NCBI GenBank assembly: GCA_031286165.1
Contig: JAITUU010000019.1
Span: 6,730-70,729, forward strand
Reading direction: 5' to 3'
Source: Bacteroidales bacterium
Lineage (GTDB): Bacteria; Bacteroidota; Bacteroidia; Bacteroidales; UBA1715
DNA length: 64,000 bases
The notes under the pieces: generated by a model
Database searches by the model: none
What the model was told of the DNA's origin: nothing
Seen by the model: only the letters and a program-made list of their open reading frames with translations
Program-made: the position numbers and the translations under genes
Shown: piece by piece, positions 3-52,675 of the stretch
How the letters are laid out: each line of letters opens with the position of its first letter
How positions within the stretch are numbered: the stretch's first letter is position 1

Positions 3-260
3 TTGCTCATAGAAGGATTTTTGCTCACTATGTACGATTTGCGCCTGCGCCTTGCCAATCAAGTGGTGGACGATGTAAAATCGCATTTCGAGAATTTGGT
101 GTTCGATACCCTCATTCAGCGCAATGTGAAACTAAGCGAATCGCCCGGATTCGGAAAACCGGCAATTCTATATGATGCCAACTCCACCGGTGCTATCAAT
201 TATTTGAATTTTGCAAAAGAACTTCTGTTGAAAAACAATTTGCCCGAAGTAAAAAAATAG
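3..260 (+). CDS. parA: ParA/Soj chromosome partitioning ATPase, C-terminal part (5' end outside window)
   Basis: C-terminal ParA motifs LLTMYD-R, FDTLIQRNVKLSESPGFGKP; directly upstream of parB. Confidence 0.9.
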   Translation: MLIEGFLLTMYDLRLRLANQVVDDVKSHFENLVFDTLIQRNVKLSESPGFGKPAILYDANSTGAINYLNFAKELLLKNNLPEVKK

Positions 261-31185: not shown

Positions 31186-31579
31186 GGGGGTGACTGGAAT
31201 TGACGGGGAGTTGATTATTGATGTAAGCATGTCGGGCAATCAAGATTTTGACCCGTAAAAACATATCTTGAAACAATAACTGGCGAAAATACTTACGCTC
31301 TTGCTGCCTAATCGAATCATAGTAGATTAACGCTTTACGCTGTTCAAGGAACAGTGGCAGGACATTCCGCAAATGGCAAGTCCTTAGTCGTTTGAATCCG
31401 GAGTGCTGTAATTAAGGAATAGCGCACAATGTGTTTGGAGTTGTGCGTAAAATTTACAAACTAAGGAAAAAGTAGAGTGCCTGTTTTCGGCTTTTTCCCT
31501 ACAATCAACAACACGGCTACACATGTAGAAAGCATTGGTAATGCTTGTTCGGACCGGGGTTCGATTCCCCGCACCTCCA
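31186..31579 (+). ncRNA. ssrA: tmRNA; tag peptide GENTYALAA* at 31282-31311
   Basis: 5' GGGGGTG pairs with 3' CACCTCC-A; T-arm GGGGTTCGATTCCCC; tag ORF GGC GAA AAT ACT TAC GCT CTT GCT GCC TAA. Confidence 0.95.
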
Positions 31580-31580
31580 C
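31556..31580 (+). repeat. attL core (3' end of tmRNA)
   Basis: GGGGTTCGATTCCCCGCACCTCCAC, identical to 52651-52675. Confidence 0.92.
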
Positions 31581-31687: not shown

Positions 31688-32878
31688 ATGCCCACACCTC
31701 AAAAAAATCAAGAGCGCGGCGCAATAGTGAGTGATTTGTACGGCTACACTCCTGCCGTACTCAAAGAATATGCCGACTATTGGTGCATAGAATACTATGT
31801 GAAGCATCCGGTAACGCACAAACTTACGCGCCGGAGAGAAAAAGTAAGCGCTTATAGAACGCGCTACGGCGTGCGCGAGGCACGGAATTTACTGCGAGTG
31901 GCAGTTAGCCGCTTGAATTTAAAATTGTCGCAAGGCTGGAATCCGTATTTTGTGCATGAAGACGGTCGCCTACTTGAACCGCTGCACATGGTTATACATA
32001 AATTTTTGGCGGAAAAAGAACGCGATTTACGCCCGAATACACTGCGTTCATACAAAAGCATGGTAGGCAAAGAACTGCGCGAATGGGCGCAAAAGAATTA
32101 TCCCACAATTACCGCTTCCACATTTACACGAAATATTGCCGTGCGCTATATGGATTTTATTCTGGCAAAAGGAGTGAGTAATACTTCATACAACAATACA
32201 AAAAAAATGATGAGTGCCTTTTTTAGTTGGTGCGTGGAAAAATGCTACGCAAAAGAAAATCCGTTTGCGCACATAAAACCAAAGAGAAAAGAACAAAAAC
32301 GCCGCATATTGGTTCCTGCCGAAGTACGAGAGCAAATTACCACTTATTTACAAGAAAACAAAAATATTGGTATGCAAATAGCCGTAAATTTGGTGTATCA
32401 AAGTCTTTTGCGCCCCAAAGAAATAAATGAAATTCAACTCAAACACATTCATTTGAGCGACAAATATATACTTGTGCCGGCTACGGTGGCAAAAAATCAC
32501 AACGAACGAAAAGCAACACTGAGCGATGCCACAATAGAACTACTGCAAAGATTGAAGATTGAAACATTACCGAAGGAATATTACTTACTCGGCGGCAATT
32601 CCAACCAACAAAGTTTACTGCCCCACGCTATACAATCGAATACGCAACGAATTTCTAAAAATTGGGATAGCATGCGAAAAAAACTAAATTTTCCCAAAGA
32701 AATGCAACTATACAGTTTGCGCGATACCGGCATAACCGATTTGCTCAAAAAAGGAATAGACCCACTTACGGTAATGCAGCACGCCGACCACCATTCGCTG
32801 GAAATGACCACAAAATACGCAAAACATATTGATACGGGATTGGTGCAGAAGATGAATAAAGTACTGCCGGATTTCTAA
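31688..32878 (+). CDS. Tyrosine recombinase/integrase
   Basis: Catalytic R (LLRPKEI), K (AKNH), YSLRDTG, ADHHS, TTKY; lies ~110 bp from attL. Confidence 0.92.
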   Translation: MPTPQKNQERGAIVSDLYGYTPAVLKEYADYWCIEYYVKHPVTHKLTRRREKVSAYRTRYGVREARNLLRVAVSRLNLKLSQGWNPYFVHEDGRLLEPLHMVIHKFLAEKERDLRPNTLRSYKSMVGKELREWAQKNYPTITASTFTRNIAVRYMDFILAKGVSNTSYNNTKKMMSAFFSWCVEKCYAKENPFAHIKPKRKEQKRRILVPAEVREQITTYLQENKNIGMQIAVNLVYQSLLRPKEINEIQLKHIHLSDKYILVPATVAKNHNERKATLSDATIELLQRLKIETLPKEYYLLGGNSNQQSLLPHAIQSNTQRISKNWDSMRKKLNFPKEMQLYSLRDTGITDLLKKGIDPLTVMQHADHHSLEMTTKYAKHIDTGLVQKMNKVLPDF

Positions 32879-34465: not shown

Positions 34466-35191
34466 TTATTTATTGTAATACATTGATTTTTTGAATGTTT
34501 CATAATACAGTTTCGATATATATTTATCGTACTGTGCTCTTTTATTTGCTCCCTGCCAATGCAAAAAACTCGCAGGCTTCAATTCCGTAACTTCCAAACC
34601 ATAGAACTGTACAATTTGGCTCAAATTAAATTCCTCAACTCCCACCAAATAACCCATAGTTTCAGTGTTTCGCGGTGCTTTTTGGCAGTATGTGCGTGCA
34701 AAATCAAAAACTTCCTTCCATACAAAATAAGCACCTGTGCTGCCAAGTAAGCCGCTGCATATCAATTTTGCCGGAATGGTATCGGTTTTGGGTAATATGG
34801 CGCAGTCTTTAAACGCTTGCACGTAGGTATAATCGCGCTCCTGTTCGGTTATAATATGTCCGCTTTCGGGTATCCGGAACTCGGTGTGAAAATAGGTGTC
34901 GAAATCCACGTGTAAAAACGCTTCGCTTTGCAAACTATATACATAGAGTTTTCCAAAATTCCAATATGCCATATTGTGCGGAAACTGCATAAAATCCACC
35001 ACGTGTACCACATCGAAAGACACGCAGAAATTACTGCCACGAAATACATCGGCACAGTACGTATCGGTGTAGAGTTCTACCCGGTATCCGCAGTTTTTCA
35101 TACTTTGTACACTCAGTTCCGCCATGCGCAGCCACCATGCACAGGGTATGTTTTTTCCACCGTAGGAATTAAAGGAGTATATTACTTTCAT
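34466..35191 (-). CDS. DUF6734-like / GT-A-type glycosyltransferase-like protein
   Basis: WNFGKLYVYSLQSEAFLHVDFD (DxD), EEFNL, FLHWQG. Confidence 0.5.
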   Translation of the reverse strand: MKVIYSFNSYGGKNIPCAWWLRMAELSVQSMKNCGYRVELYTDTYCADVFRGSNFCVSFDVVHVVDFMQFPHNMAYWNFGKLYVYSLQSEAFLHVDFDTYFHTEFRIPESGHIITEQERDYTYVQAFKDCAILPKTDTIPAKLICSGLLGSTGAYFVWKEVFDFARTYCQKAPRNTETMGYLVGVEEFNLSQIVQFYGLEVTELKPASFLHWQGANKRAQYDKYISKLYYETFKKSMYYNK

Positions 35192-35514: not shown

Positions 35515-36651
35515 TTAGAAAATTCGTATGTACGGCACGTCAAATTGTTGCACAGTGCCGGGAAATGATTGGGCGATATATGATTGTAAGTTCATTGTAC
35601 CGCCGCCGTATGCCGTTGGTGGTGCAATTTCACTACCGGCAATAACGGTTTGCAGTACATTCGTGGAATTGGGAATTTCGCTTTTTATGCGTTTTGCAGC
35701 CAAGTATCGTGCGCTTGTGTGGTCTATAAACAGTACGGCATAGTATTTTTGCTCGGCATACAATAAAACTTCGTCTTCAAAATCGGCAGTAATAGCGCAC
35801 GGTTCGCTACGAGAAAGATAACCAATAAGCGTTTTGCGAACAAAAGTCATGTTCCAATCGTAAATCGCCACACGAAAGTTACCGCCGGTGTGATTTGTTT
35901 GTACGCAAATTTGCGCTTGTTTCACGGTAGTATCTACGGCAGGAATTACCATAACACCCACAAAACCGGGATTAAAATTTTGTGCACCCTCGCACAGTGC
36001 AAAGGGAAAACTTTCGATAGGTGCGGAACTGCCATTGCTTATGCAAGTTTGCTCACCACCAAGCGAAATAGTTTTTATTTTGTTCCATGTACGCACTTTG
36101 ATTTTTGGCGTTTCACCGTCCATAAAGAGCGACATTGTTTCTTCCATGAGATTATCATCGTCCGTTTCTTTCGCACTGTGAATAAAAGATTGCCCGGTAA
36201 GAAAATAATGATTGTCTGCATTAATTCTCAAATTAATAGCATTGGCGGAACCCTGCTCAGAAAATGTTCCGTTGTAATTTTTATACAAACAATTTCGGTC
36301 GGTAAGGCGGAAAAATTGAAAAGGATACCCGTATGTTCTTTGTTCGTGATTATATACAATCAATTCGTTATTTCTCACTTGCAGTATATCAAAACCGTTT
36401 TCCCGCTTCAAATGCAATCCGTTGCGCGAAATAGAAAGCCATTTTTTATACTCATTTCCCCATTCGTTTGCCTCATATTTCGCAAATTCTTCGGGATTTT
36501 CGCGTTTCAATTCCCCCAATTCTACAATCACATGTCCACTGCCTTCTATGGCAAGCGGTGGTGTGCTATTGTTTTGCGCTGCGGTATCGCCGCCAACAAT
36601 ATCAAGCAAACCGGTTTGCGGATTAATCGTTGTTTCGTAATCAAAACTCAT
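35515..36651 (-). CDS. Putative spike/receptor-binding protein
   Basis: N-terminal INPQTGLLDIVG anchor-like motif, beta-rich body, C-terminal sandwich-like domain (NFRVAIYD, QKYYAVLF). Confidence 0.5.
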   Translation of the reverse strand: MSFDYETTINPQTGLLDIVGGDTAAQNNSTPPLAIEGSGHVIVELGELKRENPEEFAKYEANEWGNEYKKWLSISRNGLHLKRENGFDILQVRNNELIVYNHEQRTYGYPFQFFRLTDRNCLYKNYNGTFSEQGSANAINLRINADNHYFLTGQSFIHSAKETDDDNLMEETMSLFMDGETPKIKVRTWNKIKTISLGGEQTCISNGSSAPIESFPFALCEGAQNFNPGFVGVMVIPAVDTTVKQAQICVQTNHTGGNFRVAIYDWNMTFVRKTLIGYLSRSEPCAITADFEDEVLLYAEQKYYAVLFIDHTSARYLAAKRIKSEIPNSTNVLQTVIAGSEIAPPTAYGGGTMNLQSYIAQSFPGTVQQFDVPYIRIF

Positions 36652-36653
36652 GG

Positions 36654-36923
36654 CTATACGGTTTTTAGTGCATATTCATACTGTTCGCGTTGCGCCCAAT
36701 CGAAATCAAACATACCGAAGCCGACCCATTCAGTACGATATGTTACGCTGCGCGTATTGGAAAACACTATTTTTTTTACGCGCTCAATGCGGCACTTCGT
36801 AGCATCGGTATTTTTTGGAAATCCGAAATACCACGTAGTTCCACCTTCATTCACATTCACCACTTCATGTACCAATGGTGCTTTCATGCAATTTGTTATT
36901 AGTTCCGAAGAATATTCATTCAT
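36654..36923 (-). CDS. Small virion protein, putative spike adaptor
   Basis: WYFG...CRIERV...FDFDWAQREQYEY pattern, immediately upstream of the spike gene. Confidence 0.4.
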   Translation of the reverse strand: MNEYSSELITNCMKAPLVHEVVNVNEGGTTWYFGFPKNTDATKCRIERVKKIVFSNTRSVTYRTEWVGFGMFDFDWAQREQYEYALKTV

Positions 36924-38808: not shown

Positions 38809-39540
38809 TTAATTTTTAAATTTGTTGTACATATACACTCCTCCAATTCCTATTGCAATAACCGCAACTACTATCACTATCGGCAGCATACTGCTTTGTT
38901 GTTGCGTTTTGCTATTGGCTGCAGCATCTCTTAGTGCTGCTTCCTCTTCCAATTTTTTGATATATTGTAGTTCGGCTTTGGTTTGAAGCACACTACTTTC
39001 TACCTCACGTTCGCTTTGTTTCGCCGCTTCTTTTTCTGCGGAGGCAAGTGCTTTGGCTGTTTTGTTTTGCTTTATGCCTTTTACAAGACTGCCGGTAATA
39101 GAAACCGCCGCAGAAACGCCTGCTGTTATCAGTCCTATAAATTCGTGAATATTCGCATTATTCGGAATTTTCGTATCAAACACCTGACGCAGCACCGATG
39201 TATTATCGTTATCGGTAGAAAGTGCCGTTTGTAGCAATTCTTCGCCGCGTGCTATTTGTTGTTTGGTAGTAAATGGCAGACTTTTATAATATGCTTTCAA
39301 AATATCTACCGTATCATCGCCAAGTTCTAAACATCGCCAAAACGCCCATCTATCCGCAAGCATTTCGTTATCTTCGGCAGCGTTCAAATGTCCCAATTCA
39401 TGAGCAATAACAAATTTTTTGCCCATTTCACTGAGTTTATTCCACGCCGCCGGATTTATGTACAGTACGGCAGTATTCAAATCAACCGCTGCCGGTCCGT
39501 TAATCCACGAAACTTCTTGTGTGGAAGAAAATAATTTCAT
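38809..39540 (-). CDS. Zincin-like (HEXXH) metallopeptidase fused to coiled coil and C-terminal TM; start re-called at MKLFSS
   Basis: LYIN...FVIAHELGH...EMLADRWA; C-terminal TM IAIGIGGVYMY + NKFKN. Confidence 0.7.
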   Translation of the reverse strand: MKLFSSTQEVSWINGPAAVDLNTAVLYINPAAWNKLSEMGKKFVIAHELGHLNAAEDNEMLADRWAFWRCLELGDDTVDILKAYYKSLPFTTKQQIARGEELLQTALSTDNDNTSVLRQVFDTKIPNNANIHEFIGLITAGVSAAVSITGSLVKGIKQNKTAKALASAEKEAAKQSEREVESSVLQTKAELQYIKKLEEEAALRDAAANSKTQQQSSMLPIVIVVAVIAIGIGGVYMYNKFKN

Positions 39541-39545
39541 AGTGG

Positions 39546-39716
39546 TTATGATTGTTTCATTACTTGTGATGCTTTTTTCAAGCATATACTCATCTGCACT
39601 TTATGTACTTTTTTTGCCGGAATGGTTTTGTAACCAGCTTTGTTTTGAATGTCCTGAGCAAGTTTCATGAGGCGTTTTGCTCTATTTTGCGCCGCTTTTT
39701 GTTTTAAAGATGCCAT
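39546..39716 (-). CDS. 56-aa basic protein missed by the ORF track, putative DNA-binding core protein
   Basis: MASLKQKAAQNRAKRLMKLAQDIQNKAGYKTIPAKKVHKVQMSICLKKASQVMKQS*; fits the operon spacing. Confidence 0.65.
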   Translation of the reverse strand: MASLKQKAAQNRAKRLMKLAQDIQNKAGYKTIPAKKVHKVQMSICLKKASQVMKQS

Positions 39717-40434: not shown

Positions 40435-40875
40435 TTACTTTTTACAAATTCGTATAATAGCAAACGTTGTGATAGAAACTATGACAATGGCTACAAAACC
40501 CAAAATGATAGTTTTCTTCTGTTTTGCCTCTTTTTCATCAGCCTCGGCGGCTGCTTGGCGTGCTTTTTCCTCCACTTCTTTTTTTGCTTCGGGAGTTATG
40601 CCGTTTTCTATGCCAAACAAATCGAAGGCAGTATCTACGATTGAACGCAAATCTTCTCCACTAAACGCAGCAATCTTTGGTGCCGACTGTATCAACATTC
40701 TGTTCAATTCGTTGCTGAACTGTTTGCCGTGTTTCACGTATGCGCGGCGCAATTCGTTTTCAAGGTTCACATCATTGGGGCGCAACCCATAGCGATTGAA
40801 AAAGAAAAGCCAACTCTTCGGGTCGGCTTTTCTCATTTCGTCAATCAACACATCTATTGATGCCGTTTTTTTCAT
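40435..40875 (-). CDS. Tail-anchored membrane protein, putative virion protein
   Basis: Helical N-domain, AAFSG, C-terminal TM IILGFVAIVIVSITTFAII + RICKK. Confidence 0.65.
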   Translation of the reverse strand: MKKTASIDVLIDEMRKADPKSWLFFFNRYGLRPNDVNLENELRRAYVKHGKQFSNELNRMLIQSAPKIAAFSGEDLRSIVDTAFDLFGIENGITPEAKKEVEEKARQAAAEADEKEAKQKKTIILGFVAIVIVSITTFAIIRICKK

Positions 40876-40881
40876 AGTTAC

Positions 40882-41550
40882 TTAAATTAAGCCGGTTGCT
40901 ATTGCATTTTCCAACTGTGTTACTTGGCTCATGCGGTCATCGAAGTAAAATACCAAACTCACTTTTGCGCCCGCTTGCACTTTGTACAAAAACACACGGT
41001 CTTTGCCCAATACAAGGGTATCGTTTGAAAAATCTACCGATACACGAGTTTGATCGTTTTCCGTTTCCGATTTTGATGCGCTTGGTGTGCGTGTAATAAT
41101 TTGTTTTGGGCGGTGTGGACCAAGTTCGTACACTTGAAGAGCCTCATCGAGTTGGTCGGTTTTTTTACACATCACTCGCACACCTTTAATACGGCATGGA
41201 GTTTCGATAAAGGTTTTGCGAATATCAATCACATTGGCACCTTGTCCGCTTGCTGTTACGGCAGTAGAAGTAGAGGTTGCTGAAATAAATATACCATCGT
41301 CCACAATGCCGGTAACTTTTTCGGAAAAGTCCTTCATTTGCGATGCTTTTTCGTAGTATCCTTCACTGATTGCCACGAATTGGTCCACCGGTGCTTTTCC
41401 ATCGGATGCCGGAGCGGCATTATCTATTACTAAGGTTACGCTTTCTCCCGAAAAAGGATTTACATAACCATTTTGATTGCCGGCATAACCCTTAATTCCA
41501 AGTTGTCGGCGTGCTCGTTGTTGCGGAGTTTCATTTTCTAAAAATTCCAT
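40882..41550 (-). CDS. Candidate major capsid protein (beta-sandwich/jelly-roll type)
   Basis: Only sizeable soluble all-beta-looking protein at the head of the structural operon (SVTLVIDN, RIKGVRV, LQVYEL, VSVDF, VFLYKV, VSLVFYF); no HK97 motifs. Confidence 0.55.
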   Translation of the reverse strand: MEFLENETPQQRARRQLGIKGYAGNQNGYVNPFSGESVTLVIDNAAPASDGKAPVDQFVAISEGYYEKASQMKDFSEKVTGIVDDGIFISATSTSTAVTASGQGANVIDIRKTFIETPCRIKGVRVMCKKTDQLDEALQVYELGPHRPKQIITRTPSASKSETENDQTRVSVDFSNDTLVLGKDRVFLYKVQAGAKVSLVFYFDDRMSQVTQLENAIATGLI

Positions 41551-41582: not shown

Positions 41583-41765
41583 TTATTTTCCGGATAGTTT
41601 GTTGGCAAGCGTAAAAGGATTACCGGTAAAATTCGCTACGGTGCCGTTATTTTCGGCTGTTTTTTTCGCTACGGCATTCACCAATGCCATATTCCACACT
41701 GCGGAACCTACAATAAATACCACTAAAATAATAAGTAGTATGTTTGCTGTTTTGATAGAATTCAT
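41583..41765 (-). CDS. 60-aa signal-anchored membrane protein, first gene of the structural operon
   Basis: TM ILLIILVVFIVGSAVW; contains ANFTG. Confidence 0.65.
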   Translation of the reverse strand: MNSIKTANILLIILVVFIVGSAVWNMALVNAVAKKTAENNGTVANFTGNPFTLANKLSGK

Positions 41766-41827
41766 GTTTATTTGTTTTAACTGTTTACATTATTGAGTGC
41801 AAATATTATAACAAGTGATTGTGCCGA

Positions 41828-41888
41828 TACGGACTTTATCGGACTTTATCGGACTTTCAAGCACTTTATCGTGCTTTATCGGACTTTT
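41828..41888. repeat. 10-bp-period direct repeats (GGACTTTATC) upstream of the structural operon
   Basis: ggactttatc ggactttatc ggactttcaa gcactttatc gtgctttatc ggacttttt. Confidence 0.8.
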
Positions 41889-41951: not shown

Positions 41952-42233
41952 TTATTTTTTGAATAAGTCGGAATGAGTTCCGGTATGTGTAAGAACAATG
42001 TTTATTCGATTTTTTCCTGCGTTCCACACAAGCAACCAATCGGGTTGTAAATGTGCTTCCCACAAACCATTGTATTTTCCTTTCAATACGTGTGTTTTAT
42101 ATCTATCTACCGGCAGCGTGCCTGTGGCTTCCAATATTTTAACAGCAACATTTAACAATTCCATATTAAGACCTCGTTTTTGGGCTAATTTGGCTTGTTT
42201 TTTAAATTCGTGGGTGTAAGATATTGTGTACAT
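41952..42233 (-). CDS. yafQ: YafQ-family (RelE fold) mRNA interferase toxin
   Basis: FKKQAKL...HVLKGKYNGLWEAHLQPDWLLVW...TGTHSDLF. Confidence 0.9.
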   Translation of the reverse strand: MYTISYTHEFKKQAKLAQKRGLNMELLNVAVKILEATGTLPVDRYKTHVLKGKYNGLWEAHLQPDWLLVWNAGKNRINIVLTHTGTHSDLFKK

Positions 42234-42237
42234 ATAA

Positions 42238-42453
42238 CTAACTTAAAATTTCCTCTATCGGATTCTTTGTGTTTTTGAGAATATGTATTTTCCCTTCTCG
42301 TAAATCCTGCATTGATTTTTCAAAAGTAGCAGTTGTTTTCGCCGTTCTTTTGGGTAATGTTACACTCCATTTGAATTTTTTTGCCAATTCCGTAAGCAAA
42401 TCAAATTCATTCATGGGAATAGTAATAGTTACTTGTTGTACTGTTGTTGCCAT
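42238..42453 (-). CDS. Cognate antitoxin 1 (71 aa; start MATTVQQ)
   Basis: Directly upstream of the toxin; own TATATTTG -7 box; C-terminal FEKSMQDLREGKI. Confidence 0.8.
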   Translation of the reverse strand: MATTVQQVTITIPMNEFDLLTELAKKFKWSVTLPKRTAKTTATFEKSMQDLREGKIHILKNTKNPIEEILS

Positions 42454-42593
42454 AGCCGTAATAATTAGTTTCTTGTGCAAATATAGAAAATTATTTTTCA
42501 AAATCATTCTCTGTAATGCCATTCGGACTTTTTGTGCATAAAAAAAGCCACCGTATGGGTGGCTCTTACTGCAAACTAAAAAACGGAACACAG

Positions 42594-42872
42594 TTATTTA
42601 TCTAAATAATGTCCTTTCACGCTCAGAATATCAACTGTAATAGCATTATTGTTGATTGAATATACCATACGATTTTTACTATCTATTCTGCGCGACCAAT
42701 ATCCGGAAAGTTCGTGTTTTAATCTTTCCGGGTTCCCCGAACCTGTTTCGGGGTGTTCTTCGAGTTCATCAAGCAATTTTTTGATTTTTTTCAATCGTGG
42801 TTTATCTCCACTTTTCACAAGAAAATCTAATTGTTCTTCAGCCTTTTCCGATAAAAATATGGTGTATTTCAT
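42594..42872 (-). CDS. yoeB: Txe/YoeB-family toxin
   Basis: KIKKLLDELEEHPETGSGNPERLKHELSGYWSRRIDSKNRMVY...VKGHY. Confidence 0.92.
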   Translation of the reverse strand: MKYTIFLSEKAEEQLDFLVKSGDKPRLKKIKKLLDELEEHPETGSGNPERLKHELSGYWSRRIDSKNRMVYSINNNAITVDILSVKGHYLDK

Positions 42873-43093
42873 AATTCTCCGAAGTATTTATTTTTTACAG
42901 ACGAAGTTAATTGACGTTTGGGAGATTTTTCGGCATCTTGAATCATTTTCACAAATGACGCACTGTATTTTGTCGTTTGCGTTGTGCTTTTGGGTAATGT
43001 TACACTCCATTTGAATTTTTTTGCCAATTCCGTAAGCAAATCAAATTCATTCATGGGAATAGTAAGGGTTACTTGTTGTACTGTTGTTGCCAT
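42869..43093 (-). CDS. Cognate antitoxin 2 (74 aa; start MATTVQQ)
   Basis: First 35 aa match antitoxin 1 at 34 positions; different C-terminus (YSASFVKMIQDAEK); overlaps toxin start by 4 nt. Confidence 0.8.
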   Translation of the reverse strand: MATTVQQVTLTIPMNEFDLLTELAKKFKWSVTLPKSTTQTTKYSASFVKMIQDAEKSPKRQLTSSVKNKYFGEL

Positions 43094-43130
43094 AGCCGTA
43101 ATAATTAGTTTCTTGTGCAAATATAGAAAA

Positions 43131-43331
43131 TTATTTTTCAAAATCAGCCTCTGTAATGCCATAATGTGCGCACACGTGTTCGAGTGCTGCACCGTATAAG
43201 CGTTTGTGTGTCATACGATAGCCAAATTCCTGCACGCGGGTAAAGAGCGGCGGCGTGTGCAGTTCCTTTGTAAATACTTCGGTGCTTATGCCTATGGCGT
43301 AGGCAATTTCGTTTTTGTAGCGTGTTTTCAT
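43131..43331 (-). CDS. Small HTH-like protein (DUF4248-like), candidate regulator
   Basis: KNEIAYAIGISTEVF...GYRMTHKRL...VCAHYG pattern. Confidence 0.5.
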   Translation of the reverse strand: MKTRYKNEIAYAIGISTEVFTKELHTPPLFTRVQEFGYRMTHKRLYGAALEHVCAHYGITEADFEK

Positions 43332-43332
43332 G

Positions 43333-43890
43333 TTATTCTGTTGTAATGTGGATTTTTGCGTAGGGATTTTTGAGTGCTTGTGTGCGCACTGTATTCACTG
43401 CGGTTTCTAATTTTTGAAGTATGTGTGGCGGTATCCATGCTTTGCGCAGGCGCGGTTCGTCCATAGTATTGAACAATACATAATCGGTAATGTAAGTAAA
43501 TAATGCCGGTGGAATATCGCGGAAGCCATGAGCAACAAACACAATATCGAGCATCATCTTTCGGCTCACTATAATAATTTTTTTCAATGCCGAATGGTCG
43601 AAATTGCTACCAATGTAAGCGCGTGGGTCGTCGAGAACCAACACGGCATCGTGCAGGTGTTTATAAATTGCCACAAAATCGGTTTCATTTTCATATACCC
43701 GGCAGCGCACGCCGGTATAATCAAAATCTTTTCGCGCCCGGCACTTACATTCGGGAAGTTTATCCGCCCAATCGTCCCACGTGGGCACAACAAAAAGTGC
43801 ACGTTTGCCTATACAAGCAACTGCTTCGGCAAAGGTAGATTTTCCGCAACCACGCACGCCCAGCAATAGCATAATTTTAGTTTTTCGCAT
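43333..43890 (-). CDS. FtsK/HerA-superfamily (A32/P9-like) ATPase, putative genome packaging motor; start re-called at MRKTKI
   Basis: Walker A GVRGCGKST, Walker B VLVLDD, Arg-finger region SRKMMLDIVFVAH; 185 aa with no nuclease domain. Confidence 0.75.
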   Translation of the reverse strand: MRKTKIMLLLGVRGCGKSTFAEAVACIGKRALFVVPTWDDWADKLPECKCRARKDFDYTGVRCRVYENETDFVAIYKHLHDAVLVLDDPRAYIGSNFDHSALKKIIIVSRKMMLDIVFVAHGFRDIPPALFTYITDYVLFNTMDEPRLRKAWIPPHILQKLETAVNTVRTQALKNPYAKIHITTE

Positions 43891-44440
43891 TGGTTTCTTT
43901 CTCTTGTAATTGTTTTCGCAACGCATCTATTTCCATATCTTTTTGCATACCGCGCATTTGTTCTTCTTCCAATTTTCGTTGTGTTGCGCGGTATTTCACG
44001 GCAGTACTGATTTTTAAACCATAAATAAACACCGTAGAAATAGTGGCATTGACCCACGGCGGTACCGGTTTGTTTTCGGGCAACACTTGCGCCCATGCGT
44101 TGGTAAGTTCTTCGAGTTCTTCGGCATCGGCAGCCTCGTAGCCTTCGCGTATAATCATACCCATAATAAAGGTCATGAGCCGGTCGCCGTTTTTTACGAG
44201 TATTTGCGCGGTGGTTTTGTTTACCGCCGCATTAATTTTTTGGCGCACGGCAGTAGGCACATCGCTCAGTTCCTCGCCGCTGTCTTCGGGTTGGTTATAC
44301 ACTTGCTTTTCCTCTTGCAGGTCTTGCAGCAAAGTATCGGCTTCGGTGTAGTCGCTCACTGTGCCGGTTTCAAATGTGTATTCGGATTCCGCCGCCGGTG
44401 TATCTAATACTTCGGCTGGTACAAATTCTTCAAAATTCAT
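43877..44440 (-). CDS. Hypothetical protein with acidic N-terminus, hydrophobic segment and coiled coil (possible packaging accessory)
   Basis: PVPPWVNATISTVFIYGL hydrophobic helix; overlaps the ATPase start. Confidence 0.6.
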   Translation of the reverse strand: MNFEEFVPAEVLDTPAAESEYTFETGTVSDYTEADTLLQDLQEEKQVYNQPEDSGEELSDVPTAVRQKINAAVNKTTAQILVKNGDRLMTFIMGMIIREGYEAADAEELEELTNAWAQVLPENKPVPPWVNATISTVFIYGLKISTAVKYRATQRKLEEEQMRGMQKDMEIDALRKQLQEKETNAKN

Positions 44441-46664: not shown

Positions 46665-46916
46665 TTAGAGATTATTACAATGCTGCCGATACGTTTTGTA
46701 TTGGGCAAGGTAATCGTTCCACGAAAGCGTGGTGATGCGGCGCAAATTACCATGATGTATTTCAAATTGCCAGCCAAATTCCGCATGATTTTCGCGCAGA
46801 ATTGCAATAACAGTAGATTCAAATTGCACACTATCTTTTGCAATGCTGCCGATGCCGACACTCTGCCCGCTACTCATGTTACGCAAATATGCTTCAACTT
46901 TTCTTTTATACTCCAT
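46665..46916 (-). CDS. Small hypothetical protein coupled to the primase gene
   Basis: TAATG overlap with the primase stop. Confidence 0.6.
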   Translation of the reverse strand: MEYKRKVEAYLRNMSSGQSVGIGSIAKDSVQFESTVIAILRENHAEFGWQFEIHHGNLRRITTLSWNDYLAQYKTYRQHCNNL

Positions 46917-49699
46917 TAAAACGGTTTTTCTTCGATTGCTTCTATGTGAAAATAATAAACATCGCGCCCATTCTCATAGCCGCGAATCACATTGCGTGAT
47001 TTTTCGGTTTCGGTAAGGAGCAAGTGCGGAGGATTGAAAAGCCATCTTTTGAAACGGCAGAATGTAATGAGTTTTTCTTTCATTTTGCTCATTTTGGCGT
47101 GTTTTGCATATTGTTCCGGCATGGAGTTTTTATATGCGTTGAATATTTCAGCACTATCAATATTACAATTAAGTTTATCGGGCTGAAAAAAATCCTCAGC
47201 CCAGAATATAAATTCTTCGGTGAGTTCCCTGCGTAGTATTCGTTGTTCTATCATATCCATTGGTGGATTTACTTTTTCGCGGAATTTCAAATAAGTATGC
47301 AGGCATTGAGCCATGAAATTATAAAACTCATTCATTTCATTTTCGGTGTAATCGATTGGAATATTTTTACCAAATTCGGTGTATGGCGAAAATTCTTTTA
47401 TTCCTTGTACCGGGTCGTCTCCATGATAATAATCGCAAAAGCCGGTAAACCAAAAACGGCGTTTGAGCGGTCCATCAAAATTTTTCGGTGCATGGTTACT
47501 CGACGCACAGAGTTTTGGTGATTGAGAAAACAGCAATGTAACTTCGTTTTTGTAGAGTGCTCGCACGTCCATACTCTGAGTAATGGGGGGCAGCAGAGCG
47601 TGCAAATCAACCACACTATCAAGGTCATCAAAGTAAAATACTTTGGTTTTGTTTAATTCTACTTTCGACCACAATTTTTCGTCTTTCAAATCAATGCCTT
47701 GCCCACCTTTTCGCTCAAAGGGGCGCACATAACTAAGACTTTCAAAAAATATTGATTTACCGGTACCGCCTTTTTTATCGCCTTTGCTGTCAAGTTCAGT
47801 TTCTATGGCATATACAAGCCACGCCTTTGCCATTTCTTTGTACCGAAACATCATGTAGCCAAGCGCAAGAACTTTACTGATAAAAAACAAGTCCTCCTCG
47901 CGTTTTTCATCAATCGTAAGCGTTTTGCCTTCCTTTTCTTTGCGCCAATAGAACTTTCCTGTATTATACAAAAACTTCAAAAATGAAAAATCTTTGTTGT
48001 TAATCGTTAGGTCAAATCGCTCACTATTAGGCATCGTATTGAGTTGCTGTGCCTTTTCCTTATATTCGTAACTCGTAGGGTTGAGTTCCGAGAGTTCCTT
48101 TCGTAAGCGCACATACGCTTTGCTATAATCTACCCGAAAGGGTTCTTGTTCTTTACGAAAAGTATGGTCTATGATTTCGTATTCGTGTATGAATTTATTT
48201 TTTTCGTTGAATTGCTTTACTTCTAAGCCTTCGGCAGTGATTCGCACGGCTGTATTTTTGAAAAAAAGATAATCGTGCTCTTTGCTCCATGTTTGAAAAT
48301 CAAGGTGTATGCGCGGTATTTTCTTTAAACTCGAAAATTTTACTTGATTACTGCGGTGTATAGTGTTAATAAGTGATTTATTGTAGTATTCCAAGTTTGT
48401 TTTCACAAAATTGATTAATTGTGTGTTTGCGTGGCTATCTACATTGTCTTCGGTAATTTCGTAAGTTATATTATTGTCTATTTGTATGAAATCAAATTTT
48501 GATTTGTTTTGCGGATTGTCAAAAGTCCACAAGCCCAATGCAGAAAGAAAACGATATAAATTATCGTTATCCAAATCGTATTTTATATTTACAATCGTTC
48601 CATCTTTATCTTTTTGCTCTACTTCACTCCAAAATTGCAGGGTATTTGCACTACGCACCAACTGTTTGAATAAGTATTCGTTTCTGGGATATTTTTTATT
48701 TCTGTAATGTACAAAAAAATCTTTTACGTCTTTACAAGGATTGCCTTTGCGGTCGCGAAAATTTTTTAAATCTTCGGGAAGATTGATAATGTGAAAATCC
48801 AAAAATTCCAAAGCGTATTTTTGCGCTTGGCGAATACCGGTAGTGTCGGTATCGTAGCACAAATAGAGTGTTTTAGCAATTCTGCGCAGTGTTTTGTGTG
48901 TGAAATTTGAAATTTCGGCACTTTCGGAATTGAAAAACAGTACATTAAATGATGTATTTGCAAAAATATTGAGCGCATCGCTGCCTCCGGAACAAAGTAT
49001 TACCTCTTCCAATGTATTGTCTTCATCGGGAGCCTTTCCCTCTATAGCTTGATTATATAGCCGCATAGTTTTTGCATTGCCCGAAATGCTGTTTTGTGGT
49101 TTTTCGCCGTAATACGAAAAACGATTGTCTTTCGAGTGGGGCTGATACAAACGACCGTAGATACCATAATCGTACAAAAAAATAGGAAATTCGGTCGTGC
49201 TGCTTATTTCCCAACATTCGGCACCGGTCTTTCCGGGTCGTATAAAACTTTCAACAGAATAGAGGTTAAATTCTCGCTCGCATATTTCGGCTGTTATGTT
49301 TTTGCCAAGTAATGAGAGTTCCGCTTCCGTAAATTGTTTGCGTTTATACGAAAACGTATCTTGATACGCAACCTTTTTGAAACCGGGTTTTGCTTCCGGA
49401 GCCGCTTTGCCATCAATTGGTATATGATAGCGTTCCGCAAGGCGGCGAATAGCATCGCCTTTACTCATGTTTTCTATTTTTGCCACAAAATCTATCACGT
49501 CCATTGTGGAATCCATACACGAAAAACACTTACAGTATTGCTTTGCCGGATTCACACTAAATGCCGGTGTTTTTGTATTGTCGTGGAATGGGCAAAATCC
49601 TGACCAACTACCCCCATTGCGTGTTAAATTTACATAGTCGCCTACCACATCTACTATGTCGGTGGCGTTTTTAATGCGGTTTATTATTGAATTATCCAC
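46916..49699 (-). CDS. Primase-helicase: CHC2 zinc finger + Toprim-like + C-terminal P-loop NTPase
   Basis: CPFHDNTKTPAFSV...CKCFSC; ILCSGGSDAL and CYDTDTTG; GGTGKS, FYFDDL, CASSN. Confidence 0.85.
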   Translation of the reverse strand: MDNSIINRIKNATDIVDVVGDYVNLTRNGGSWSGFCPFHDNTKTPAFSVNPAKQYCKCFSCMDSTMDVIDFVAKIENMSKGDAIRRLAERYHIPIDGKAAPEAKPGFKKVAYQDTFSYKRKQFTEAELSLLGKNITAEICEREFNLYSVESFIRPGKTGAECWEISSTTEFPIFLYDYGIYGRLYQPHSKDNRFSYYGEKPQNSISGNAKTMRLYNQAIEGKAPDEDNTLEEVILCSGGSDALNIFANTSFNVLFFNSESAEISNFTHKTLRRIAKTLYLCYDTDTTGIRQAQKYALEFLDFHIINLPEDLKNFRDRKGNPCKDVKDFFVHYRNKKYPRNEYLFKQLVRSANTLQFWSEVEQKDKDGTIVNIKYDLDNDNLYRFLSALGLWTFDNPQNKSKFDFIQIDNNITYEITEDNVDSHANTQLINFVKTNLEYYNKSLINTIHRSNQVKFSSLKKIPRIHLDFQTWSKEHDYLFFKNTAVRITAEGLEVKQFNEKNKFIHEYEIIDHTFRKEQEPFRVDYSKAYVRLRKELSELNPTSYEYKEKAQQLNTMPNSERFDLTINNKDFSFLKFLYNTGKFYWRKEKEGKTLTIDEKREEDLFFISKVLALGYMMFRYKEMAKAWLVYAIETELDSKGDKKGGTGKSIFFESLSYVRPFERKGGQGIDLKDEKLWSKVELNKTKVFYFDDLDSVVDLHALLPPITQSMDVRALYKNEVTLLFSQSPKLCASSNHAPKNFDGPLKRRFWFTGFCDYYHGDDPVQGIKEFSPYTEFGKNIPIDYTENEMNEFYNFMAQCLHTYLKFREKVNPPMDMIEQRILRRELTEEFIFWAEDFFQPDKLNCNIDSAEIFNAYKNSMPEQYAKHAKMSKMKEKLITFCRFKRWLFNPPHLLLTETEKSRNVIRGYENGRDVYYFHIEAIEEKPF

Positions 49700-52537: not shown

Positions 52538-52650
52538 GTGCTTTGCAGTAACCATATAGGAACGCACCGGCAATAAAATAAAATAGAAAAAATATATAAA
52601 CAACTGAAAATAAGCGTGAGATACAAAATAGAATAGTTTATTTTTCGACT

Positions 52651-52675
52651 GGGGTTCGATTCCCCGCACCTCCAC
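52651..52675 (+). repeat. attR core (duplicated tmRNA 3' end)
   Basis: Identical to 31556-31580. Confidence 0.92.

Follow-up and report, generated by a model that had tools for sequence, protein, structure and literature searches.

The viruses of the Halopanivirales (P23-77, IN93, SH1, SNJ1) have an internal membrane, a small packaging ATPase gene just upstream, and coat proteins of 170-290 amino acids (aa). As stated in the Simuloviridae profile (PMC12642351), viruses of this type encode two adjacent paralogous coat proteins, each consisting of a single jelly roll. Other membrane-containing viruses build their shell from a double jelly-roll protein; phiCjT23 P5, at 239 aa, is described as the smallest one known and PM2 P2 (269 aa) as the second smallest (PMC9719478). 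Here we describe a gene in a stretch of 64,000 nucleotides (the window) from a Bacteroidales genome (assembly GCA_031286165.1, contig JAITUU010000019.1), whose 222-aa product is probably the major capsid protein of a temperate, tailless virus with an internal membrane and double-stranded DNA (dsDNA), residing as an element of ~21.1 kb in the transfer-messenger RNA (tmRNA) gene of a Bacteroidales-type bacterium. Neither a survey of prokaryotic viruses with double-roll capsids (PMC5894146) nor one of Vinavirales in the gut (bioRxiv 10.1101/2022.07.18.500477) describes an ATPase-bearing group of this kind in Bacteroidota; in the latter census the prophages are mostly found in Alphaproteobacteria and Verrucomicrobia, and its text never mentions a word beginning with Bacteroid (bioRxiv 10.1101/2022.07.18.500477). 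The major capsid protein is the best reading of the gene because its position, conservation, solubility and fold class are taken together.

The open reading frame (ORF) begins with an ATG codon and encodes a protein of 24.3 kDa that is acidic (isoelectric point, pI, 5.3). Its highest 19-residue Kyte-Doolittle mean is 0.94; the protein hence has no membrane segment and is soluble. The closest homologue in a word-indexed search has 217 aa and 54% identity (E-value 1e-68), and an exhaustive HMMER search of 1.84 billion representatives returns 32 further representatives of 50%-identity clusters with lengths of 199-269 aa. Because there are homologues of up to 54% identity and these 32 cluster representatives, the ORF is, as judged from sequence comparison, a real and conserved gene. 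An earlier reading of the DNA by a model that saw only the letters and the ORFs (the sequence-only reading) had proposed a divergent capsid-protein candidate of 222 aa, soluble and rich in beta-strands. The length, with an ATG start and conserved homologues, and the solubility both hold, and the strand content is borne out by the structural model described below, in which 75 of the 222 residues are in strands and 41 of the 222 in helices. Two profile searches enlarge the family to ~140 cluster representatives, none of which carries an informative name or a Pfam domain. The family spans lengths of 199-269 aa, the median being 236 aa, and 112 members of the 132-sequence alignment are shorter than 239 aa.

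Sequence searches against Pfam, PHROG and the PDB give nothing significant, neither for the target itself nor for all 85 members of the alignment; matches of alignment members to FimA-like_C and PilP (3 members each, E-value ~2e-3) are taken as noise. A tblastn search of the target against 50,697 phage records yields no match, and neither the ATPase nor the main-clade alignment nor phiCjT23 P5 retrieves a relative in pattern scans of IMG/VR viral contigs. The family is, by these searches, uncatalogued, namely absent from Pfam, PHROGs, PDB sequences and the phage collection. Profile comparison by hhalign with the capsid proteins of phiCjT23 (gp05 alone as well as a 4-sequence family profile), FLiP and PM2 gives probabilities below 1%. 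Searches with hidden Markov models of capsid-like and ATPase families, together with BLAST of 26 element ORFs, reveal no similarity to Salisaeta phage SSIP-1. The family is also rare: it is found in 1 of 400 other Bacteroidota genomes sampled, compared to 3 of 400 for capsid proteins of the phiCjT23 type.

AlphaFold2 applied to the target sequence alone gives a useless model with a predicted local distance difference test (pLDDT) score of 40. The working model is therefore AlphaFold2 with the 85-sequence alignment, for which pLDDT is 92 and the predicted template modelling (pTM) score is 0.87, with all five models at least 89.7. According to DSSP the model consists of 14 strand segments and five helices, and short helices flank the predicted sandwich on either side (N-terminal 9-17, C-terminal 209-218). 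The prediction, which is confident, supports a compact beta-sandwich of the jelly-roll class. The sequence-only reading had named a model other than a beta-sandwich as the result that would speak against it; the AlphaFold2 model is a beta-sandwich. The ten best PDB matches found by Foldseek are 8-stranded jelly rolls of the nucleoplasmin type, which align over ~90 columns with a template modelling (TM) score of ~0.4 on the target. Capsid jelly rolls, namely those of satellite tobacco mosaic virus, cowpea chlorotic mottle virus, birnavirus VP2, picornavirus and dicistrovirus, are found lower in this list, as is the TNF-like OX40L; the list is mixed also with phage tail proteins and a few unrelated proteins. 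Matches in BFVD are weak: the best whole-length match is an unnamed viral protein of 213 aa (TM 0.37), and cucumovirus and comovirus coat proteins are included as well.

The gene is part of a complete provirus, with attachment repeats, an integrase and a primase, located at the tmRNA gene of a Bacteroidales genome. The 29-bp attachment repeats start 21,095 bp apart, which sets the size of the element to ~21.1 kb. Upstream of the target lies a P-loop ATPase of 197 aa whose six-sequence profile aligns with PM2 P9 in hhalign over 117 columns (probability 69.5%, E-value 4e-5). Among PDB chains it matches B204 of Sulfolobus turreted icosahedral virus (STIV) over its full length with an E-value of 0.02; no other match listed is a viral genome-packaging NTPase or gives a longer alignment, and most other PDB matches extend little beyond the P-loop. 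A Pox_A32 match is found below threshold in 3 of the 6 ATPase members. Relatives of the element are known from two metagenome-assembled Bacteroidales/Bacteroidetes genomes (L002, L012), from metagenomes (L001, L003, L004, L008, L009, L010) and from a complete genome of the same class (G039). The contigs that carry a homologue preserve the gene arrangement of the element. Wherever a locus is long enough to include both (L002, L004, L008, L010, L012 and G039), the ATPase and the target family occur together with unchanged spacing, and the target family is the only soluble, that is non-membrane, protein that BLAST finds shared across distant relatives. The gene directly downstream of the capsid-like gene encodes a helical, tail-anchored membrane protein in every relative, so that a second jelly-roll gene next to the first, as in Halopanivirales, is lacking. 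No terminal repeats are present on any of the fetched contigs, and no complete free genome was recovered among them.

A conserved protein in this position might also be a structural protein of the virion that does not form the shell, for instance a protein of the penton or vertex or a membrane-proximal scaffold, with the true coat encoded by some other, unrecognised gene. The best PDB matches are pentameric nucleoplasmin-type jelly rolls, a fold class shared by many penton proteins, and the conservation of the target between close relatives is modest, both of which agree with such a role. The remaining evidence does not: besides the target BLAST detects no soluble protein conserved across the group; the 378-aa protein near the end of the array and its counterparts vary in size and sequence. 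Moreover, 222 aa is large for a separate penton base, the equivalent in phiCjT23 being a spike domain of 91 residues and the penton domain of PM2 lying likewise within the spike, and the slot after the ATPase and a small membrane protein is that of the PM2 capsid protein. We consider a non-shell role quite unlikely.

What stands of the capsid candidate as first proposed is a sandwich of the jelly-roll class, encoded at the capsid-protein position of a tailless membrane virus and shorter than phiCjT23 P5; the sequence-only reading had also posed the choice between one sandwich and two. Provided that the target is a coat protein, we give a single roll with an insert an even chance; a compact two-sandwich protein is clearly less likely, and some other sandwich is less likely again. 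Our leaning is towards a single jelly roll comprising residues 36-204 with a hairpin-plus-helix insertion at ~64-117, and not towards a canonical 16-strand double roll. The model has 14 strand segments as compared to 16, six of them before residue 104 and eight after residue 118; in family members of 199-200 aa the beta core would have ~165 residues at its disposal; and hhalign of the N-terminal half against the C-terminal half detects no internal repeat. A further indication comes from mean-field coevolution on 85 and 132 sequences, which amount to only 62-77 effective sequences and give weak, partly indel-driven signals. The weak map contains two tight hairpins (86-89/97-103 and 169-173/179-181), and couples strands 36-43 and 57-62 with 185-194 as well as 119-128 with 196-204. 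All 3003 ordered choices of eight strands were scored on this map by the jelly-roll pairing rule. The best of the 3003 threadings uses the strands 36-43, 57-62, 119-128, 138-142, 149-154, 169-173, 185-191 and 196-204, and corresponds to a single roll that runs through the chain, into which residues 64-117 are inserted as a hairpin plus helix. The first eight strands, taken as a separate roll, rank 2812 of 3003.

Several results weigh against the capsid assignment, or against the single roll. Foldseek finds no PDB match of the target below an E-value of 1e-3 (best 3e-3, TM at most 0.43). Its top 50 matches hold no known vertical capsid protein, either single or double jelly roll: the double-roll capsid structures of PM2 (P2), FLiP, phiCjT23, PRD1 (P3) and STIV are absent from the top 50 matches, and P23-77 VP16/VP17 and SH1 VP4/VP7 are not among the top 50 in the PDB. 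The target is less conserved than its neighbours, with 44% identity to its counterpart in L012, as compared to 80% for the ATPase and 72% for the lysin. The ATPase is probably of the packaging type, with scores that are moderate. To our knowledge there is no published virus that combines one single-jelly-roll coat gene with an internal membrane. With respect to the fold, a separate roll made up of the last eight strands ranks 122 of 3003 (label-shuffle p ~0.04, on an underpowered map), and the ~90-column Foldseek matches to complete 8-strand rolls keep the two-sandwich reading alive.

The latter two points belong to an alternative in which the target is a major capsid protein whose double jelly roll is compact and upright, as in phiCjT23 and PM2, and which forms pseudo-hexameric trimers. 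The two rolls, V1 and V2, would comprise approximately residues 1-117 and 118-222, respectively, and the family would then hold the smallest double jelly-roll capsid proteins known. The resulting split of 117 + 105 residues is near the 126 + 113 of phiCjT23, residues 119-207 contain exactly eight strand segments, the two tight hairpins of the coevolution map are separate from each other, and the PM2-like gene order with a single coat gene suits a double-roll virus. Against this, the N-terminal half has only six strand segments, two of which are 2 residues long; neither Foldseek, within the top 50, nor hhalign connects the target to a double-roll capsid protein; the signal of an internal duplication was not found; the ~165 residues available in the shortest members would have to accommodate 16 strands; and the coupling of strands 36-43 and 57-62 to 185-194 points to a common sandwich. 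A double roll of this kind is, in our judgement, rather unlikely.

A more radical alternative is a non-viral element, for example an integrative one that encodes a membrane-associated transfer or vesicle system, the target being a beta-sandwich of unrelated function. Indeed, no hallmark gene is detected at a curated threshold, the Pox_A32 match remaining below its cut-off, and there are no relatives in the scanned IMG/VR contigs or in the phage collection. The gene order nevertheless matches that of PM2, the best matches of the ATPase are viral packaging ATPases, a FLiP-like virion lysin is present, and the variable protein shares its C-terminal domain with a 900-aa ORF elsewhere in the genome; a Pfam scan of 19 element proteins gives no match to relaxases or type IV secretion. 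We hold a non-viral origin to be very improbable.

If the target is the major capsid protein, it would be made from the late operon straight after the 60-aa membrane protein, and would form capsomers that coat a lipid vesicle, in which the many small membrane proteins of the element reside. The tail-anchored 146-aa protein may link the coat to the membrane, the small ATPase of the A32/B204 type would then package the DNA, and the variable 378-aa protein may form the vertex spikes. More generally, though we regard this as doubtful, this group of Bacteroidota proviruses might assemble an icosahedral shell lined by a membrane from homo-oligomeric capsomers of one 200-240-aa protein with a single jelly roll, the shell being filled by an A32/B204-type ATPase; alternatively, the coat protein might have two sandwiches and make up the smallest double-roll coat family. 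Phages that contain a membrane and lack a tail are difficult to detect, and the evidence for deep virus evolution comes mainly from their coat proteins. The target family marks a group of Bacteroidota proviruses that standard virus finders would probably miss, most of its members are shorter than the record-holding double jelly-roll coat, and either architecture bears on the origin of the double roll. A one-gene single-roll shell, if true, would correspond to the postulated ancestor of both the two-gene capsids of Halopanivirales and the fused double-roll capsids of Bamfordvirae; if there are two sandwiches, the family, with members as short as 199 aa, would replace phiCjT23 (239 aa) as the smallest known case of a double jelly-roll coat.

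Table 1. Features of the element in the window and of the structural model of the target (positions in nucleotides of the window, or in residues of the target where indicated).
Feature	Position	Strand	Basis
Candidate major capsid protein (target)	40882..41550	-	ORF, family, AlphaFold2 pLDDT 92, Foldseek, conserved beside ATPase
187-aa protein with hydrophobic helix, PM2 gp-h position	43877..44440	-	stop overlaps ATPase start; conserved in L002, L012, L008, L010
197-aa P-loop ATPase, probable genome-packaging, A32/FtsK-HerA type	43333..43926	-	hhalign, PDB profile matches
Two toxin-antitoxin cassettes between ATPase and late operon	41952..43192	-	191-nt repeat D1
Five 10-bp tandem repeats, GTCCGATAAA-like, putative late-promoter control region	41823..41887	-	repeat family D3; sequence
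60-aa single-pass membrane protein, presumed first late-operon gene, PM2 P7 position	41583..41765	-	homologues directly upstream of capsid-like gene in L001, L002, L012
146-aa tail-anchored membrane protein	40435..40875	-	same architecture downstream of homologue in L003, L004, L008, L009, L010, L012, L016
258-aa HEXXH protein, C-terminal membrane anchor	38809..39585	-	weak Peptidase_M78 match just under Pfam cut-off; conserved in L003, L004, L008, L009, L012, L016
Membrane-anchored SLT lytic transglycosylase, 202 aa	36941..37549	-	Pfam SLT 1.2e-8
Conserved 89-aa protein preceding candidate spike; vertex or penton component at a guess	36654..36923	-	conserved in L012, L004
378-aa variable protein, candidate spike / receptor-binding protein	35515..36651	-	variability
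Left attachment repeat, tmRNA gene 3' end (tmRNA 31186-31580)	31552..31580	+	direct repeat
Right attachment repeat, 28 of 29 bases	52647..52675	+	direct repeat
Tyrosine integrase	31688..32878	+	Pfam Phage_integrase 8e-18
927-aa primase-helicase-type replication protein	46916..49699	-	Zn_ribbon_DnaG 3e-26; weak DUF5906 match
Model strands	residues 19-20, 36-43, 57-62, 81-82, 86-89, 98-103, 119-128		AlphaFold2 model, DSSP
Model strands (continued)	residues 138-142, 149-154, 169-173, 179-181, 185-191, 196-204, 206-207		AlphaFold2 model, DSSP
Model helices	residues 9-17, 107-116, 131-135, 156-159, 209-218		AlphaFold2 model, DSSP

The genes around the target form an array on the minus strand (Table 1). 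It begins with a coiled-coil protein, a 97-aa protein and the 187-aa protein with a hydrophobic helix, which has a weak hhalign match to PM2 gp-h (probability 19%, E-value 1e-3), and continues with the ATPase, the two toxin-antitoxin cassettes, the 60-aa membrane protein, the target and the 146-aa tail-anchored protein. These are followed by more single-pass membrane proteins including the HEXXH protein, then by the transglycosylase and the 89-aa and 378-aa proteins. The relatives L002 and L012 have no ORFs that match the toxin-antitoxin genes at this place, only ~0.55-0.8 kb of small ORFs; the cassettes of this element are therefore an insertion. The tandem repeats are located between the terminator of the toxin-antitoxin cassettes and a TATTTG box just upstream of the 60-aa gene, and look like putative binding sites of a late-gene regulator; their exact 15-mer occurs in no locus from another genome, its only match being L013, which is the window's own stretch. 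The 60-aa gene would presumably be the start of the late operon. The sequence-only reading had called the target the second gene of a structural operon: it does come second, after the 60-aa gene, and where the operon starts is the presumed part of that statement. For the 146-aa protein, a role as linker between capsid and membrane is a candidate function.

A motif F-(S/T)-G-(E/N) occurs in three consecutive proteins, as ANFTGNPF in the 60-aa protein (41618-41641), NPFSGESV in the target (41437-41460, residues 31-38) and AAFSGEDL in the 146-aa protein (40648-40671). It is also seen in the tail-anchored neighbours of distant relatives (NFTGN in L003, NFTGT in L004). The gene of the membrane-anchored HEXXH protein lies 1.3 kb downstream. 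The motif could be a processing site, although the main clade of the capsid-like family has SF-DE in its place. The transglycosylase is 40% identical (E-value 2e-25) to the structural 'putative lytic enzyme' of the FLiP virion. This match is the only strong, BLAST-level sequence link of the element to a cultured tailless phage.

The 378-aa protein has no detectable similarity to its 532-aa counterpart in the closest relative, L012, a variability that fits a putative receptor-binding spike. Its C-terminal 171 aa (35515-36030) share 88% identity with the C-terminal part of a 900-aa ORF on contig C19, and 55% with an ORF on contig C46 of the same genome, and the 98-aa neighbour of the gene is 75% identical to a protein on C19. 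To judge by these identities, it looks like receptor-binding modules are exchanged between co-resident elements of the genome; a homologue of the target is absent from the other tailless element, on C19/C46. Near the end of the operon a 241-aa protein (34466-35191) is a member of DUF6734 (E-value 1.4e-10). The distant relatives L003 and L009 have DUF6734 in the corresponding position, and the 241-aa protein therefore belongs to the conserved set. The complete genome G039 (L015/L016, contig 1, ~2,759,000-2,777,000) harbors a distant relative of the element with the same core, with ParB-like and SSB-like genes upstream and, by eye, a lysozyme-type lysin in place of the SLT enzyme.

With respect to described viruses, phiCjT23 is similar in its host phylum (Bacteroidota, Flavobacterium), in being temperate and tailless with an internal membrane, and in its P5 (239 aa; PDB 7ZZZ), a very small beta-sandwich coat protein whose gene is preceded and followed by small ORFs. 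The name VP5, given to this protein in the sequence-only reading, is wrong, the correct designation being P5 or gp5; the lengths of known capsid proteins given there were roughly right, as exemplified by PM2 P2 and FLiP. phiCjT23 differs in its 7.6-kb single-stranded DNA (ssDNA) genome with a Rep protein, no ATPase and integration at a dif site, as compared to ~21 kb with an integrase, a primase-helicase and a packaging-type ATPase here. Moreover, P5 is a proven upright double roll of 2 x 8 strands without sequence or profile similarity to the target, whose architecture is predicted only.

The FLiP virus (Finnlakeviridae) likewise has a Bacteroidota host, a small structural protein gene that precedes the capsid gene, and the lytic enzyme described above. 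Its capsid protein is, however, 311 aa long without detectable similarity to the target, and its genome is ssDNA without an ATPase (PMC5894146). A single-roll target would work like the vertical single jelly-roll capsid proteins of Halopanivirales, with the difference that it is not flanked by a paralogous coat gene: the genes on either side encode a 60-aa membrane protein and a helical protein with a tail anchor.

The closest match in gene order is PM2 (Corticoviridae / Vinavirales), where gp-h, P9, P7, P2, P3/P4/P8 and P1 correspond to the 187-aa protein, the ATPase, the small membrane protein, the target, the membrane proteins and the spike, respectively. Homology is supported only for the ATPase, at profile level, and faintly for gp-h, and the lytic transglycosylase of the element is placed between the membrane proteins and the spike. 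Both have many small membrane proteins; P2, with 269 aa, is unrelated in sequence to the target, and the element has a genome twice as large with another replication module. By analogy the coat protein would work like that of a membrane virus of the PM2/FLiP type. A feature of dsDNA viruses with double-roll capsids, a linked ATPase of the A32/FtsK-HerA type, is present with moderate scores and lies beside the target family in all loci that reach it.
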